Assembly (NCBI GenBank): GCA_044226015.1
Contig: JBGAHS010000002.1
Location: forward strand, 465,571-529,570
Reading direction: 5' to 3'
Source of the DNA: Candidatus Obscuribacteraceae bacterium
Lineage (GTDB): Bacteria; Cyanobacteriota; Vampirovibrionia; Obscuribacterales; Obscuribacteraceae
Length of the DNA stretch: 64,000 bases
Shown here: piece after piece, positions 3,779-37,390 of the stretch
Layout of the letters: every line of letters starts with the position of its first letter
Numbering within the stretch: position 1 is the stretch's first letter
The notes under the pieces: generated by a model
The model's input: only the letters and a program-made list of their open reading frames with translations
What the model was told of the DNA's origin: nothing
Databases searched by the model: none
Made by a program: the position numbers and the translations under genes

Positions 3779-3928
3779 CGGTTTTTCTTACCCAAATTGA
3801 AGACTCGACCGGTACCGATGTAGTTCTCCGGTTTTTCTTACGCCAATTCAAAACTCGACCGGTACCGATGTAGTTCTCCGGTTTTTCTTACCCAAATTCA
3901 AAAACTCGACCGGTACCGATGTAGTTCT
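3779..3928. repeat. 3 tandem copies (50-51 bp period) of the CGGTACCG-core palindromic repeat
   Basis: ACTCGACCGGTACCGATGTAGTTCT repeated; cores at 3810, 3860 and 3911. Confidence 0.95.
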
Positions 3929-11860: not shown

Positions 11861-12108
11861 AGACTCACGACATTCGTGAGCGATCCGAACAAGCCGCTTG
11901 TTTTTGATGTCTACGCTGAGAGCTTCTGGAGATGCGATTTTCACGCCGACGAATACAGCAAGATTGACCGCACGGATCTAAGGTTTTTCTGCGCATAAAG
12001 TGAGCTCTGCAGTAAGAAAAACAATTTTCAATTCTTTTTTTGCATTTTCATTGAACTTTTTCGACCTCATTTACGTTTTAAACAACAGAAGGTATGAGGT
12101 AAAGAATA

Positions 12109-13095
12109 ATGCGAAAGAGAAAAGAGAAAAGCAAATTCGCAGAACTGTATCCAGCATTTTGTAAGGAATTCCCTGATGAAGAACATTGCGTTAGGATGCT
12201 TAGTCAACAACGCATGAAAAAAGTCATCCCTTGCAAGAAATGCAAAGGTACAAAATTCGTACACACAAATACCTACAAGCAATATTACTGCGAAAATTGT
12301 GGTCAGGAATATTTCACCTTTGCTGGAACCTATTTCGAGAGGTGTACATATTTCCGCGCGCGGGTGGCTGCAATCTGGTTTAAACAACGCAAGATACGCC
12401 CCTCGCCACTCGAATTTGCCCAGTACTTTGGCATGGCTCTTTCCACAGCTCAGGACATTTTGAACAACGTGGGGTTTATCTCTCTGGAAAAAATGAATCA
12501 GAGAGAAACGGAGACATTGTCCTCATCAGAATTTCTTGAAATATACTGTCGTCGCAGTCTGCAAACTCCAGCCCGAGAGCATCCTCGCGCAGAGCAAAAC
12601 GAACTAGACGATCACTTCAAAGAGATAGACCAGACTACAGATGAGGCTTTTAATGTTGAGCTAGATGAAACTGAACTTTTGGTGCTCGACGAATTGTCCA
12701 CAGAGAAGGGAAAAAACGTTGATGACCTGATCAGCAAAACCAGCCTGGAATTTTCGGATATCTTGATGGCTCTGAGCCAGTTACAGTTCAAAGGGCTAGT
12801 GGATTTTACAGCAGAACAATTGTTCAAGCGAAAAAAGAAAATTCCTAAGCCAAACAATAATGAGGCACAAAAAAAGTTCATTGAGAAATTCACCGAGTCG
12901 ATTAAAGATAAGTGCCACCGTATAAGCAGAAAATACATTCAGGTCTACCTCGCGGACGCCTGGGCGACCGAACAAGATGACATATGGACAGATGAATTCA
13001 TGGCAGAACTTCTTGAACGAAAACCACTCTCAAGGGCGGCTATGCGAGCCTATACATCGCCTTATTATCTACAAATACCCTGCTGCGCCAGCTAA
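12109..13095 (+). CDS. IS1595-transposase-related protein: Zn ribbon + HTH + DprA-like winged helix + IS1595-like C-terminal motif, with no recognisable DDE core
   Basis: FPDEEHC...CKKC...YYCENC...AGTYFE resembles the IS1595 zinc ribbon; LDETELLVLDEL...VDDLISKTSL...LSQLQFKGLV resembles DprA_WH; HRISRKYIQVYL resembles the IS1595 C-terminal H.VS.KYL..YL motif. Confidence 0.7.
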   Translation: MRKRKEKSKFAELYPAFCKEFPDEEHCVRMLSQQRMKKVIPCKKCKGTKFVHTNTYKQYYCENCGQEYFTFAGTYFERCTYFRARVAAIWFKQRKIRPSPLEFAQYFGMALSTAQDILNNVGFISLEKMNQRETETLSSSEFLEIYCRRSLQTPAREHPRAEQNELDDHFKEIDQTTDEAFNVELDETELLVLDELSTEKGKNVDDLISKTSLEFSDILMALSQLQFKGLVDFTAEQLFKRKKKIPKPNNNEAQKKFIEKFTESIKDKCHRISRKYIQVYLADAWATEQDDIWTDEFMAELLERKPLSRAAMRAYTSPYYLQIPCCAS

Positions 13096-13222: not shown

Positions 13223-13270
13223 GCCCCAGAACAATGTGCAGCCAGGCATGGCTGCACATTGTTCTGGGGC
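13223..13270. repeat. Perfect 22-bp inverted repeat with a GGCA loop
   Basis: GCCCCAGAACAATGTGCAGCCA-GGCA-TGGCTGCACATTGTTCTGGGGC. Confidence 0.95.
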
Positions 13271-13295: not shown

Positions 13296-13363
13296 CAATA
13301 AAGGCTGCACCGGTACCGATGTAGTTTTTTTGTTTTTGAGCGGTACCGGTGCAGCCTTTATTG
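13296..13363. repeat. Perfect 23-bp inverted repeat, each arm containing the CGGTACCG core
   Basis: CAATAAAGGCTGCACCGGTACCG-22 nt-CGGTACCGGTGCAGCCTTTATTG. Confidence 0.95.
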
Positions 13364-13459: not shown

Positions 13460-13543
13460 CGGAGAGGGTGGGATTCGAACCCACGTGGCGTTAACCCATC
13501 CGCTTTCGAGGCGGCGCCGTTGTGACCGCTTCGGTACCTCTCC
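13460..13543 (-). tRNA. tRNA-Ser (anticodon CGA), CCA not encoded
   Basis: Reverse complement GGAGAGGTACCGAAGCGGTCACAACGGCGCCGCCTCGAAAGCGGATGGGTTAACGCCACGTGGGTTCGAATCCCACCCTCTCCG folds as a cloverleaf with a long variable arm. Confidence 0.96.
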
Positions 13544-24475: not shown

Positions 24476-24698
24476 AGAATCTTCGCCTCGCACCCCGCAG
24501 ATTTTCCCGAAAACTCCATCGGTACCGGTTGAGTTCTCAGATTTTTCTGCGCCTCGCACCCGCAGTTTTTCCCGAAAACTTCATCGGTACCGGTCGAGTT
24601 CTCAGATTTTTCTTCGCCTCGCAACCGCAGATTTTCCCGAAAACTTCATCGGTACCGGTCGAGTTCTCAGATTTATCTGCGCCTCGCACCGCAGATAA
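24476..24698. repeat. 3 tandem 65-bp copies of the CGGTACCG-core repeat (opposite orientation to the 32.6 kb array)
   Basis: Cores at 24520, 24585 and 24650; unit includes GCAGATTTTCCCGAAAACTYCATCGGTACCGGTYGAGTTCTCAGATTTTTCT. Confidence 0.95.
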
Positions 24699-25329: not shown

Positions 25330-26330
25330 AGTCGATTGCACCACATCTGGTATTACTGTTTACGCTTGGCATAGCTGCATGTTTCGCCGAATCAAAAGCT
25401 GACGAGAAAGTCCCATCGGCAAACCTTAGCTTGAAATCTGCTTCCTCCGCTAGCGTTCCAACACCAGCAACAGCCAAAAGGCTTATCTCAACAGCTCCTT
25501 CTAACACAGAACTTATTTATAGCCTCAACGCAGGGAGAAGTCTTGTAGGAGTTTCAGAAAGCTGCAACTTCCCTCCTGAGGCAAAAAGTAAAGAAGTTAT
25601 ATCCAGCTTCAACTCCTTAAAAATGGAAAAGGTCGCCCAGCTAAAACCAGATTGCATCTTTCTTGTAAGCGGGCAGGAATCACTAGCACATAATTTGAAA
25701 AAACATGGATTCAACTCCGTTCTGCTAGACAACAGTTCCATTGAAAACATTAGCAAGAATCTGTTAGCCATTGGCAAGGTCACCAAGCAGGAGAACGAAG
25801 CCGTAGCGCTTGGCAAAGCTTTTGACATGGCAATCAGGAAACTGAAAAAGCTTACATCAAGCGACAAAAAACTTCCCCGCGTATTTATCTGCGTCTGGCC
25901 ACAACCGCTAATGTCGGCAGGCAAAAGTAGTTTTATGAATGAGGGTGTCACTATAGCTGGTGGCATAAATTGCACGGGAGATTTGCCACAACCCTATCCG
26001 CGCGTCAACCAGGAAAAACTCGTTCTTTTGAAACCGGATCTAATAATAGTTCCCGCCGAACAATCGAGAGAAAAGTTCTGGGATAAAGCTCCGTGGATTA
26101 GCATGAAGGCAGTTAAGGAAAACCGTATCTATGTCGTCCCGCAGCACGAAACAGACTGCCTGACGCGGCCCACTTTGCGTTACATAGATGCACTCAGCTG
26201 GCTTGCCTGCAAGCTCCATCCCGAACTCAAAACAGCCATAGACAATTGGCATTCGGAAGCGGTTGAGTCATTAAAAGTCCTCAAGAGTGATCAAAAATCA
26301 TCCTCTCGGAAATCATCCTTCCGTACGTAG
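25326..26330 (+). CDS. Helical-backbone ABC substrate-binding protein (BtuF/cobalamin- or heme-binding type)
   Basis: Signal peptide, RLISTAPSNTELIYSL, LVGVS..CNFP, AGGIN and RPTLR motifs. Confidence 0.85.
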   Translation: MKSIAPHLVLLFTLGIAACFAESKADEKVPSANLSLKSASSASVPTPATAKRLISTAPSNTELIYSLNAGRSLVGVSESCNFPPEAKSKEVISSFNSLKMEKVAQLKPDCIFLVSGQESLAHNLKKHGFNSVLLDNSSIENISKNLLAIGKVTKQENEAVALGKAFDMAIRKLKKLTSSDKKLPRVFICVWPQPLMSAGKSSFMNEGVTIAGGINCTGDLPQPYPRVNQEKLVLLKPDLIIVPAEQSREKFWDKAPWISMKAVKENRIYVVPQHETDCLTRPTLRYIDALSWLACKLHPELKTAIDNWHSEAVESLKVLKSDQKSSSRKSSFRT

Positions 26331-26558
26331 AAAAAGATTCATCTAAAGGCTTTACTAAGTACATTGACTTGATGATGGAGGTTAGAAAGTCTGATTTCAG
26401 GCGTTTTTCGTATTTGTCCAAATATTTACGCCACGGATGACACTTAGCCATATGGCTCGAGGTAGTGGCTATAATCTTGGAGGTTAGGATTCGCTCGATG
26501 AACGAATTTTCACGACCACATGTCAAGCTCTCGGCAGCATTACCAGTAGAGATTTGAA

Positions 26559-27950
26559 GTGCACTTCAGCAACATAGAACCAAACAACACGGCAGGGCTG
26601 ACAAACGAGTCAGCAAACAATCACCTCGTTGTAGTCGGCATCAATTACCACTCGTGTCCGATATTCATTCGCGAGAAGTTCGTAATCCCGGATTCCTGCA
26701 TTAAGCATGCTTTACAAGCTTTGACCCATATGCCGCATCTCAAGGAAGCAGCGATACTTTCAACCTGCAACCGTACAGAAGTATATGCAGTTGTTAGCGA
26801 TGTCCAGGCGGGGCTCAGAGAAATAGAGTCATTCTTTGCTTCGACTCAAAAGCTTGCAGACCATGATGCTCTGAAACCGAATTTCAAACTTTTAAGGGAC
26901 GACGTGGCACTCCACCTCTTTAGAGTCGCTTCCGGACTAGACAGCTTGGTACTCGGCGAAGGACAGATTGTCGCCCAGGTTAAGAACGCTTTCAAGCACG
27001 CAGTCGATGCTGGCACTGCCAAAACGTTCCTGACTCAGCTCTTTCAGACCGCTCTGTGCACCGGCAAACGAGTTCGCACAGAAACAACGCTCGGTCGCCG
27101 TGCGGTCTCTGTCAGCTCGGCAGCAATTGAAATGGCTCGCGAAACCTTTGGCGGACTGAACGACAAGACCGCTCTCATTGTAGGCGCTGGTCACATGGCT
27201 CAACTCAGTGCCAAACACCTGCTTGCAGACAATGGTACCAGCAGACTCTTGATGATCAACCGGACGGCTGAACGGCTGGAACATTTTTCAGGCAACAAAT
27301 TACCAAACAAGGACAGACTTGATATTTCGCAATCTTTCAGCAACCGCTATGAGCTGATGAATGAGAGCGATCTAGTCATAGTATCCACAAGCTCGCCGAA
27401 ATATCTGCTCACTAAAGCTGAGCTGCAAAAGCACCTCAAGCCTGGCAAGAAAATCTGCATAATCGACATCTCGGTGCCAAGGAATGTAGAGCCCGCAGTC
27501 GCTGAACTTGATGCTGTCACTCTCTACCACGCAGATGATCTGGCTAAAGTAGTAAATGCAAATCTTGCCGAACGAGAGGCTTTGACAGCAGACGCCGAGC
27601 GCATCGTATTTGAGATGCTCACGGAATATGAAAACTGGGAACGCTCGCTTTTGATAGCGCCAACTTTAACTGAATTCCGCAAAAAAATCGAAGCAATTCG
27701 TGTGGAACATCTGGTGAAGCACGAGCGCCAGGAAAACGACGAGTTTGAAGCACTGAGTCGAGCGTTGATAAATCAGATTCTTCATCAACCAACTACGCAG
27801 TTGAAATCAACAAGTGACTACCATCTTTTAAAACAGCAGGCAGAAGCACTGCGCAAACTGTTCCAGCTTGATATTTTTGGTGAGGAAACGGGGTCCTCGT
27901 GCCCTGCTTCGGCAGCAAATCAAATTCACGCACACGCGAAGCAGATGTAG
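26559..27950 (+). CDS. hemA: Glutamyl-tRNA reductase
   Basis: LSTCNRTE, HLFRVASGLDSLVLGEGQI and DISVPRN motifs. Confidence 0.96.
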   Translation: MHFSNIEPNNTAGLTNESANNHLVVVGINYHSCPIFIREKFVIPDSCIKHALQALTHMPHLKEAAILSTCNRTEVYAVVSDVQAGLREIESFFASTQKLADHDALKPNFKLLRDDVALHLFRVASGLDSLVLGEGQIVAQVKNAFKHAVDAGTAKTFLTQLFQTALCTGKRVRTETTLGRRAVSVSSAAIEMARETFGGLNDKTALIVGAGHMAQLSAKHLLADNGTSRLLMINRTAERLEHFSGNKLPNKDRLDISQSFSNRYELMNESDLVIVSTSSPKYLLTKAELQKHLKPGKKICIIDISVPRNVEPAVAELDAVTLYHADDLAKVVNANLAEREALTADAERIVFEMLTEYENWERSLLIAPTLTEFRKKIEAIRVEHLVKHERQENDEFEALSRALINQILHQPTTQLKSTSDYHLLKQQAEALRKLFQLDIFGEETGSSCPASAANQIHAHAKQM

Positions 27951-29831: not shown

Positions 29832-29910
29832 CGGTGGAGTTTTCAGGAAAATCTGTGTGGGCGCGCCGGAGAAAAAACGCGAAACTCGAGCGGTACCGCC
29901 TTTCGGTACC
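29832..29910. repeat. Degenerate copy of the CGGTACCG-core repeat
   Basis: GGAGTTTTCAGGAAAATCTG...GAAACTCGAGCGGTACCG, between convergent genes. Confidence 0.75.
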
Positions 29911-32076: not shown

Positions 32077-32541
32077 ATGAAAACCAGTACCGCTTATCAA
32101 ATCAGTTTCGCCAACGCCTTTGCAGATCTCTATCTGGACAAGGAAAACGGTGAAGTCGCTCTTGATTTGAGACGCCAGGAAATCACCATTTATCTCAACC
32201 AAACGCAGTACCAGGCACTTGTTCTTCTTGTTCAGCAGAGCCTGGAAGACGAGGAGTTTTTGGAATATCTCAATTGGCAGAAAGACCCGCTTCAGTGCGA
32301 TGAGAATCGCATTTTTGAGATCTGCGGACCAGACCATATGGTCTGTATGGCGTGCACTCCGAGCTACGAACGCGTCAAACTGACTTTCGAGATCGGAGTA
32401 GCCGTCGATCTCTCTTTTGCCGATTACCAGGGGCTTGCAAGCCTACTTAAGGAAGCTCAAGCAGACCTAGAATGGCGTAGAGAGTTGCTACGCTGGAACA
32501 TGCAGGATCAAGGCGGTGACTTCGCCACCGGCAACGACTAA
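32077..32541 (+). CDS. Hypothetical protein with an internal duplication
   Basis: 154-aa ORF with GAGG RBS, just downstream of hemB and followed by a terminator. Confidence 0.75.
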   Translation: MKTSTAYQISFANAFADLYLDKENGEVALDLRRQEITIYLNQTQYQALVLLVQQSLEDEEFLEYLNWQKDPLQCDENRIFEICGPDHMVCMACTPSYERVKLTFEIGVAVDLSFADYQGLASLLKEAQADLEWRRELLRWNMQDQGGDFATGND

Positions 32542-32621: not shown

Positions 32622-33147
32622 CGGGAGAATCTGCGCCCCGCCACCGCAGAAAAACATGAGAACTACATCGGTACCGTTTGAGTTTCGGGAAAATCTGCGC
32701 CCCGGCCGCCGCAGGAAATCATGAGAACTACACCAGTACCGTTTGAGTTTCTTGGAAAATCTGCGCCCTGCCGCCGCAGAAAAACATGAGAACTACACCA
32801 GTACCGTTTGAGTTTCTTGGAAAATCTGCGCCCTGCCGCCGCAGAAAAACATGAGAACTCCACCGGTACCGTTTGAGTTTCTTGGAAAATCTGCGCAGAA
32901 AAACATGAGAACTACACCGGTACCGTTTGAGTTTTCGGGAAAATCCGCGCCCCCGCCGCCGCAGAAAAACATTAGAACTCCACCGGTACCGTTTGAGTTC
33001 TGCGAAAATCCGCGCCCCTGCCGCCGCAGAAAAACATGAGAACTCCACCGGTACCGTTTGAGTTTTCGGGAAAATCCGCGCCCCGCCGCCGCAGAAAAAC
33101 ATGAGAACTCCACCGGTACCGTTTGAGTTCTGCGAAAATCCGCGCCC
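32622..33147. repeat. 8-unit tandem array (~65 bp period) of the CGGTACCG-core palindromic repeat
   Basis: Cores at 32669, 32734, 32799, 32864, 32918, 32984, 33049 and 33114; consensus GGGAAAATCYGCGCCCYGCCGCCGCAGAAAAACATGAGAACTMCACCGGTACCGTTTGAGTTTTC. Confidence 0.97.
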
Positions 33148-37251: not shown

Positions 37252-37390
37252 GGATTTTCCCAAAACTTCACCGTTTGAGTTCTCTCGTTTTTCTTCGCCT
37301 TCACCTGCGCAGATTTTCCTCAAAAAACTCCACCGGTACCGTTTGAGTTCTCTCGTTTTTCTTCGCCTTCACTTGCGCAGATTTTCCCCA
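37252..37390. repeat. 2 copies of the CGGTACCG-core repeat (first copy has its core deleted)
   Basis: ACCGTTTGAGTTCTCTCGTTTTTCTTCGCCTTCAC twice; intact core at 37334; between convergent genes. Confidence 0.92.

Follow-up and report, generated by a model that had tools for sequence, protein, structure and literature searches.

Intergenic palindromes of the REP, BIME and REPIN type go with RAYT (TnpA-REP) proteins, form tandem mosaics at gene 3' ends, and come as one repeat class per cognate gene. DNA uptake sequences, for their part, are non-palindromic and recognised by a surface receptor. In Neisseriaceae and Pasteurellaceae they are short motifs spread genome-wide, some of them in coding DNA, which act at DNA import and are retained by transformation-linked drive or selection (accessible part of PMC2397512). 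In the SsnA/NTS system of Neisseria, which affects natural transformation, a gene is flanked by its own palindromic repeat, variants of the repeat are paired with variants of the protein, the repeats cluster around many genes, and SsnA itself acts as a GIY-YIG nuclease on single strands, cutting them at hairpins (accessible part of PMC11893778).

The window studied here, a stretch of 64,000 nucleotides from a Candidatus Obscuribacteraceae bacterium (genome G000; 8.19 Mb in 13 contigs, 92% complete), carries palindromes at six loci together with a cognate gene, and for each of these nearest systems one of its defining features is missing here. Its palindromes resemble those of REP/REPIN-RAYT in being intergenic tandem mosaics at gene 3' ends, but the cognate protein belongs to another lineage, the fields of sites are centred on genes, a Y1/HUH transposase (PF01797) was not found in the 92%-complete genome, and the half-site profile of aligned cores holds no GTAG-type tetranucleotide tag. 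They recall uptake sequences as short motifs, in part coding in related genomes, that would be retained by a transformation-linked drive or selection; in contrast to them, they are local and gene-centred, palindromic, of several subtypes per chromosome, and linked to a cytoplasmic protein. With SsnA/NTS they share a gene flanked by its own palindrome and the pairing of repeat and protein variants, whereas each gene copy here centres a distance-dependent field, and the protein is unrelated to SsnA and devoid of a nuclease motif, the GIY-YIG family being absent from the best 25 of 45 Pfam families of 36 members. An effect on transformation would be common to both systems if the DprA domain and the promoter motif described below are a reliable guide. 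Compared with parS and matS sites, the fields do not cluster at the origin or terminus. We found no description of such a gene-field system in the literature searched, which lay mostly outside subscription journals. Our preferred reading, to which we assign a probability of about 0.6, is that a transposase-derived gene lacking the DDE core sits at the centre of the palindrome field and that its protein likely binds these palindromes; we predict this protein to be made with the competence genes, to recruit ComM, and to bias transformation locally in favour of the gene.

Palindromes in the window

The earlier note on this DNA had reported 18 cores at six loci, all of which we recovered in place, and a search with its pattern returns 15 window sites at no more than one mismatch against none in 100 shuffles. 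The first locus, 3779..3928, is a three-core array with cores starting at 3802, 3852, and 3903, a period of 50-51 bp. The second, 13296..13363, adjoins the cognate gene as its cognate site and comprises two cores, one starting at 13303 and the other centred at 13341-13348, which lie 219 and 249 bp past the stop codon. Another three-core array occupies 24476..24698 (cores starting at 24512, 24577, and 24642; period 65 bp), and is followed by a lone degenerate core starting at 29883 within 29832..29910. The eight-core array on which the earlier note focused, 32622..33147, runs from a core at 32661 to one at 33106 with a period of ~65 bp, and two of its eight cores read CAGTACCG. The last locus, 37252..37390, combines one core at 37326 with a core-deleted unit near 37260. 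Array periods of 50 and 65 bp, as proposed earlier, are borne out, and so is the location at gene 3' ends: gene calls and the tRNA place four loci between convergent genes and two 3' of a tandem gene. Hairpins visible in the sequence precede three of the six loci. Among Rfam models, only SRP and tRNA match in the window, with no match for the repeats. Next to the eight-core array, the plus-strand ORF at 32077-32541, 3' of hemB, encodes a 154-aa protein with a genus-wide identity of 95-98%, as compared with ~80% for hemB; no Pfam match at E<0.09 was found for it.

A family-wide skeleton with regional subtypes

The cores indeed belong to a dispersed family, as the genome-wide search returns 93 exact cores and 189 at no more than two mismatches (57 loci). 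Exact cores are clustered regionally, on parts of contigs C1 and C7. Tandem-repeat and k-mer scans report further regional repeats with other centres, and all regional repeats have in common the skeleton A-N-C-G-N-T-A-N-C-G-N-T, which matches intergenic DNA 389 times, against 2-57 times for 15 control skeletons. The window arrays are one regional subtype of this skeleton palindrome, and not a free-standing REP family. Of 119 intergenic loci, we retained 94, with 364 sites: 71 carry several copies, and 23 are singles that differ from those by no more than three mismatches; the other 25 singles were left out.

The proposal that the repeat is lineage-specific stands for the exact GGTACC core, present in none of 60 relatives, and fails for the underlying skeleton, which is family-wide. 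We find tandem skeleton pairs in 71 of 103 genomes of the family, reversed-pattern controls giving 0-4 in all but three. The commonest form has an ATAT centre; this family is rich in it, and the other families of the class show background levels. A search of GTDB for the exact core returns at least 80 loci in scattered taxa, with one match each among the matches listed, and a metagenome scan returned one locus.

Pairing between the arms was measured at free positions, the skeleton positions being fixed by definition, and amounts to 0.40 against 0.28 expected at position -5 and 0.35 against 0.31 at -8. Because this is only slightly above chance, the conserved feature seems to be particular bases and not a hairpin, and the suggested role as an RNA 3' hairpin is poorly supported. 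The sites favour convergent spacers (35 of 94, as compared with 614 of 3523) and are scarce in divergent, promoter-bearing ones (13 of 94 versus 943 of 3523). Units at different loci of G000 have long linkers in common, and 56-bp flanks are also common to loci; the shared linkers imply copying besides point mutation. In G000, coding DNA within 50 kb has no site of the right subtype, unlike that of its relative G061, which like the shared linkers counts against the preferred reading, and since the G000 sites are intergenic only and amplified into arrays, copying contributes in this genome. A plain REP/BIME or MITE reading finds little support, for PF01797 is not found in G000 and orthologous sites of a related genus stay in place, partly within ORFs, and decay upon gene loss. 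Of the options raised by the earlier note, that of a protein-binding site fits best.

Other repeats were encountered in passing. Contig C11 of G000 carries, at ~15 loci, a distinct ~35-bp intergenic repeat confined to that contig, and GGATCC occurs within many unrelated tandem repeats on many contigs. At several loci of two relatives (L142 and L143 in G067 and G068), palindrome pairs ~68-72 bp apart flank a conserved inner motif.

A cognate gene centres each field

The window contains a gene that the earlier note overlooked, at 12109..13095 on the plus strand, encoding a 328-residue protein (P0001) with an IS1595-type scaffold devoid of the DDE core. It lies between cysS and the 3' end of tRNA-Ser(CGA) (13460..13543, minus strand). 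When the 436 proteins encoded within 3 kb of a site were used as queries, one paralogue family stood out, with 8/8 members within 1 kb of a site as compared with 4% of all genes. Proteins of this gene family range from 320 to 530 residues, and in all eight G000 paralogues the adjacent site is found 84-478 bp downstream of the gene. A long inverted repeat at 13223..13270, read from the sequence, separates the window gene from its palindromes, and similar hairpins follow several paralogues. Integration at tRNA genes was discarded as a general explanation, since a tRNA lies near just one of the eight paralogues. The 19 tyrosine-recombinase and 4 serine-recombinase matches did not yield a site-linked family; a Xer-like recombinase gene 2.6 kb from an array, at G000:C11:1297351, is probably there by chance.

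The density of loci falls with distance from the gene, from 10 per 100 kb at less than 10 kb to 7.9 at 10-25 kb, 4.5 at 25-50 kb, 1.7 at 50-100 kb, and 0.6 at 100-200 kb. Leaving aside adjacent loci, 44 of 86 lie within 50 kb of a gene, while in 5000 random placements this number averaged 11.7 and never exceeded 34. At 51 of 56 loci, the central hexamer is identical to the one in the nearest gene's own site (p 3e-4 by permutation, which gave a mean of 13.75). Most paralogues centre a field of their own subtype of roughly 50-100 kb. The eight proteins form one clade in a quick tree, in which the two with GTTAAC sites are sisters. Other observations count against the strict picture or the preferred reading: by whole-arm similarity the match to the nearest gene's site drops to 39 of 56 loci, 15 of the 94 loci are 100-400 kb away from a gene, another 15 sit on gene-less contigs, and around paralogues G and H a field of the matching subtype is almost missing (1 of 5 loci up to 100 kb away). 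Patterns for parS, the DnaA box, and dif showed no tie to the fields, and the synteny of fields between genera showed no clear excess.

A transposase scaffold with a DprA-type winged helix

P0001 comprises an IS1595-type zinc ribbon and helix-turn-helix, an RRS-x-x-TPA-x-x-HP-x-x-E motif, a winged helix at residues ~183-243, and an IS1595-like C-terminal helix. Transposases of the IS1595 family (PF12760 and PF12762) align with it at the zinc ribbon, the helix-turn-helix, and the C-terminal helix, and the Atlas, which places the protein family in Candidatus Melainabacteria, reports IS1595 transposases as the nearest named clusters after the family itself. The PF12760 zinc ribbon is below the curated cut-off in P0001 (E 5e-4), with its four cysteines invariant. 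In contrast, the RNase H/DDE core of IS1595 transposases does not align, the third acidic position is variable, and the segment is replaced by another domain. Among 146 of 150 listed homologues (650 clusters were found), the four cysteines are the only invariant residues, R149, S150, T153, H158, P159, E162, R274, K275, and Q278 are nearly so, and neither a catalytic triad nor an invariant tyrosine is conserved. Protelomerase- or recombinase-like chemistry was dropped for want of an invariant tyrosine and of a serine-recombinase motif.

DprA_WH (PF17782) matches the middle domain of 34 of 36 members at E<=0.05, that of P0001 weakly (E 0.013). With a winged-helix profile built from the family only, the C-terminus of the host DprA reaches 86 bits, compared with 38-56 bits for the paralogues and 23 bits for the next unrelated protein; no other protein of the host is as near to the middle domain as the DprA domain. 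The predicted structure is confident (pLDDT 91.6), and a Foldseek search of the PDB returns winged-helix regulators only, none of them at E<=0.001. These alignments describe an IS1595 transposase scaffold in which a DprA-derived winged helix has taken the place of the DDE core. The winged helix of DprA recruits ComM in two species and is not a DNA-binding domain in one, and ComM can extend or collapse D-loops (accessible part of 10.1101/2024.10.21.619469). Unlike in DprA, the winged helix is here fused to a transposase scaffold and not to the Smf single-strand-binding domain, and its binding to ComM is a prediction. The interface glutamate, located by alignment to the V. cholerae interface residue, is retained by 80% of the family; the window protein has a glutamine instead, which speaks against the preferred reading. 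ComM itself is present in G000 (G000:C1:781419-782957) and in 59 of 60 relatives.

Terminal inverted repeats and an 8-bp target duplication were not seen around the gene, and 18 gene copies of G099 have no ends in common, copies that are old and whose ends may have decayed. Recent, ordinary IS1595-type copies of ~1 kb are present in G082 and G061 (L209-L211 and L213-L214), with ends unlike the palindrome.

A promoter-like motif shared with comM and other genes

A promoter-like motif, TGAAC-N17-CGT, precedes the cognate gene at 12052..12076 on the plus strand and is found upstream of all eight paralogues; we take it to resemble ECF-sigma promoters. A possible decayed half-site with an array-type linker, judged by eye, lies upstream of it at 11967..11995 on the plus strand. 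A matrix trained on 17 strict matches, seven of the eight paralogues included, returned 38 matches in the genome, and 23 genes downstream of them were checked in Pfam, comM being recognised by position. The motif precedes comM and the genes for RadC, UPF0102, a phosphoribosyltransferase that we label ComF-like, RecJ, XseA, and an SbcC-like protein, as well as those for DnaB, DnaE, ribonucleotide reductase, and a sigma factor fragment. UPF0102 presumably corresponds to YraN. YraN is a partner of ComM (accessible part of 10.1101/2024.02.06.579203). Against the preferred reading, several motif-bearing genes are unrelated to DNA, and the motif was not found in the 160 bp checked for dprA. At L185 in G062, a palindrome variant is located between the two boxes of the promoter motif, which suggests self-repression.

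Fields and their decay in related genomes

Homologues of the gene are present in 88 of 103 family genomes, with 0 to 20 matches per genome. In 72 genomes for which both counts are available, and which as kin are not independent, the palindrome count is 0-5 in the 9 without a gene match and has a median of 23 in the 59 with at least two matches. Gene-centred fields, distinguished by arm or centre variants of their own, are found in G061, G082, and G085: 31 of the first 50 of 62 G061 sites and 14 of 20 G082 loci fall no more than 50 kb from a gene, in 7% and 13% of the DNA, respectively, and G085 has three such fields. Relatives mostly have the adjacent site upstream of the gene, 87-140 bp before its start at 16 of 29 loci; a script places it upstream in 10 of 18 gene copies of G099. 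Shorter gene copies (287-318 residues), apparently without the winged helix, occur in G082 (C1 near 852.6k, 1195k, 1366k, 4281k, and 4380k) and in G085 (C1:2311550). Three of the five in G082 have an adjacent array or pair, and each has 0-1 dispersed sites within 50 kb, as compared with 0-4 for four full-length copies, a weak hint that the winged helix is needed for the field.

Three comparisons bear on gene loss. At one orthologous place, the gene is present in G061, G065, and G062 and absent in G021. Across a 20-kb stretch of G061, all nine sites are kept in G065 (84% identity) and in G062 (73%), and none of the nine in the gene-less G021 (74%). In the wider G061 field, the skeleton is kept at 11 of 13 sites in G065, 8 of 12 in G062, and 1 of 11 in G021, with core identities of 0.99, 0.94, and 0.60 and flank identities of 0.82, 0.67, and 0.69, respectively. 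Five of 16 G061 sites are within ORFs, and several differ from G021 without indels. About 4 of the 11 losses in G021 are deletions, contrary to the preferred reading, and the rest are substitutions. In genus g51, G085 displays 14 sites in 40 kb around the gene, and G092 has the gene and most of these sites in common with it, one 23-bp site-bearing indel distinguishing the two. Pieces fetched from six congeners without the gene, with both flanks syntenic in four of the six, contain 0, 0, 0, 0, 1, and 3 sites in 19-33 kb; a three-copy array in G090 and one site in G091, near the gene-less locus, are also at odds with the preferred reading. Lastly, four genus relatives retain cysS, tRNA-Ser, and the downstream genes of the window locus, and have neither the gene nor a site in 10-20 kb. 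In all three comparisons, gene-less relatives have no sites or decayed ones and carriers retain theirs; the upkeep of the sites depends on the local gene.

A strain from another study has one extra 65-bp unit at the 29832 locus. The 40 of its 133 differences listed in the allele comparison include 30 changes in the gene, 22 synonymous and 8 non-synonymous, with nearly identical flanks. At 25802-27347 of the window, a patch of dense differences in run X2, also with near-identical flanks, resembles a recombination tract. Runs X5-X7 cover small pieces of the window.

Proposed mechanism

According to the preferred reading, a dimer of the protein would bind the double-stranded palindrome through the zinc ribbon and helix-turn-helix of the transposase, while the DprA-type winged helix would dock ComM. 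The bound protein would most likely let ComM abort the D-loops that incoming gene-less DNA forms in the flanks, and the gene would in this way escape curing. Sites would be favoured according to their proximity to the gene; they would arise through point mutation and local conversion and, in G000, multiply via tandem duplication of 27-120-bp units. Protection from curing is the direction we favour because it would explain the locality, as only sites where donor flanks pair would help the gene persist. The distinct dialects within one cell suggest some cis action, a known trait of several transposases.

Alternative explanations

The opposite direction survives best among the alternatives, although we consider it unlikely: the protein would bind sites on incoming DNA, as single-strand hairpins, load ComM, and favour integration, a drive like that of uptake sequences but acting near the gene only. 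The winged helix of DprA normally loads ComM productively (accessible part of 10.1101/2024.10.21.619469), the sites are uptake-sequence-like in being kept in place and partly within ORFs, and the differences of the second strain concentrate on the gene as if it had been exchanged (35 of 38 listed, on one contig). However, a drive of this kind would require strict cis action to remain local and subtype-specific, and the arms are often mismatched at free positions, which argues that the hairpin is not the conserved feature.

Somewhat less probable is a local copying of the palindromes, as REPIN- or MITE-like elements, by the protein acting as a cis-preferring transposase, its chemistry left unspecified. 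The fall in site density with distance from the gene, the 56-bp flanks common to units at different G000 loci, the copy number that varies between strains, the indel between G085 and G092, and the unrelated places that the gene occupies in different genera would all suit such copying. It is difficult to reconcile with a protein that conserves no triad or invariant tyrosine in 146 of 150 listed sequences, with orthologous sites kept at 73% flank identity, some of them in frame in ORFs without indels, with ordinary IS1595 ends that are unrelated to the palindrome in these genomes, and with the lack of common ends around the 18 gene copies of G099.

We give slightly less credit again to sites that would organise host chromosome domains in the manner of parS or matS, each paralogue bridging the region around it. 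Such sites would account for the regional clustering, and a ParB_N match was not found in the 92%-complete, 8.2-Mb genome; yet the fields are away from the origin (C6 near 815 kb) and the likely terminus (C9 near 139 kb), gene matches vary from 0 to 20 per genome, the fields show no clear excess of synteny between genera, and the DprA domain and the promoter are left unexplained. Least probable of all are operators of a local transcription regulator, for which the upstream site at 16 of 29 loci in relatives makes autoregulation plausible there, or RNA 3' hairpins, which like operators could suit the preference for convergent spacers in G000, since divergent promoter-bearing spacers are poor in sites, free-position arm complementarity is 0.35-0.40 against 0.28-0.31 expected, and neither explains the decay of a whole field upon loss of one gene.

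Significance

Mobile elements resist "chromosome curing" by breaking or repressing competence genes, comM included (accessible part of PMC12378983). The preferred reading of a protein that biases transformation around its own gene would, with slightly better than even odds, define a new class of selfish gene: a transposase without transposition, equipped with a captured DprA hook and a competence promoter, that builds a binding-site territory of 50-100 kb and decides which allele wins in transformation, with several dialects per chromosome. If true, a gene controlling recombination in its own neighbourhood only, through sites that thin out with distance, would follow another strategy and be the bacterial counterpart of a drive locus. 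With the gene-loss comparisons, it becomes possible to test directly how repeated palindromes arise and are maintained, and a sequence-specific ComM adaptor could serve as a tool to steer integration. For this uncultured lineage, the width of the fields would, if the reading is true, record the reach of transformation.
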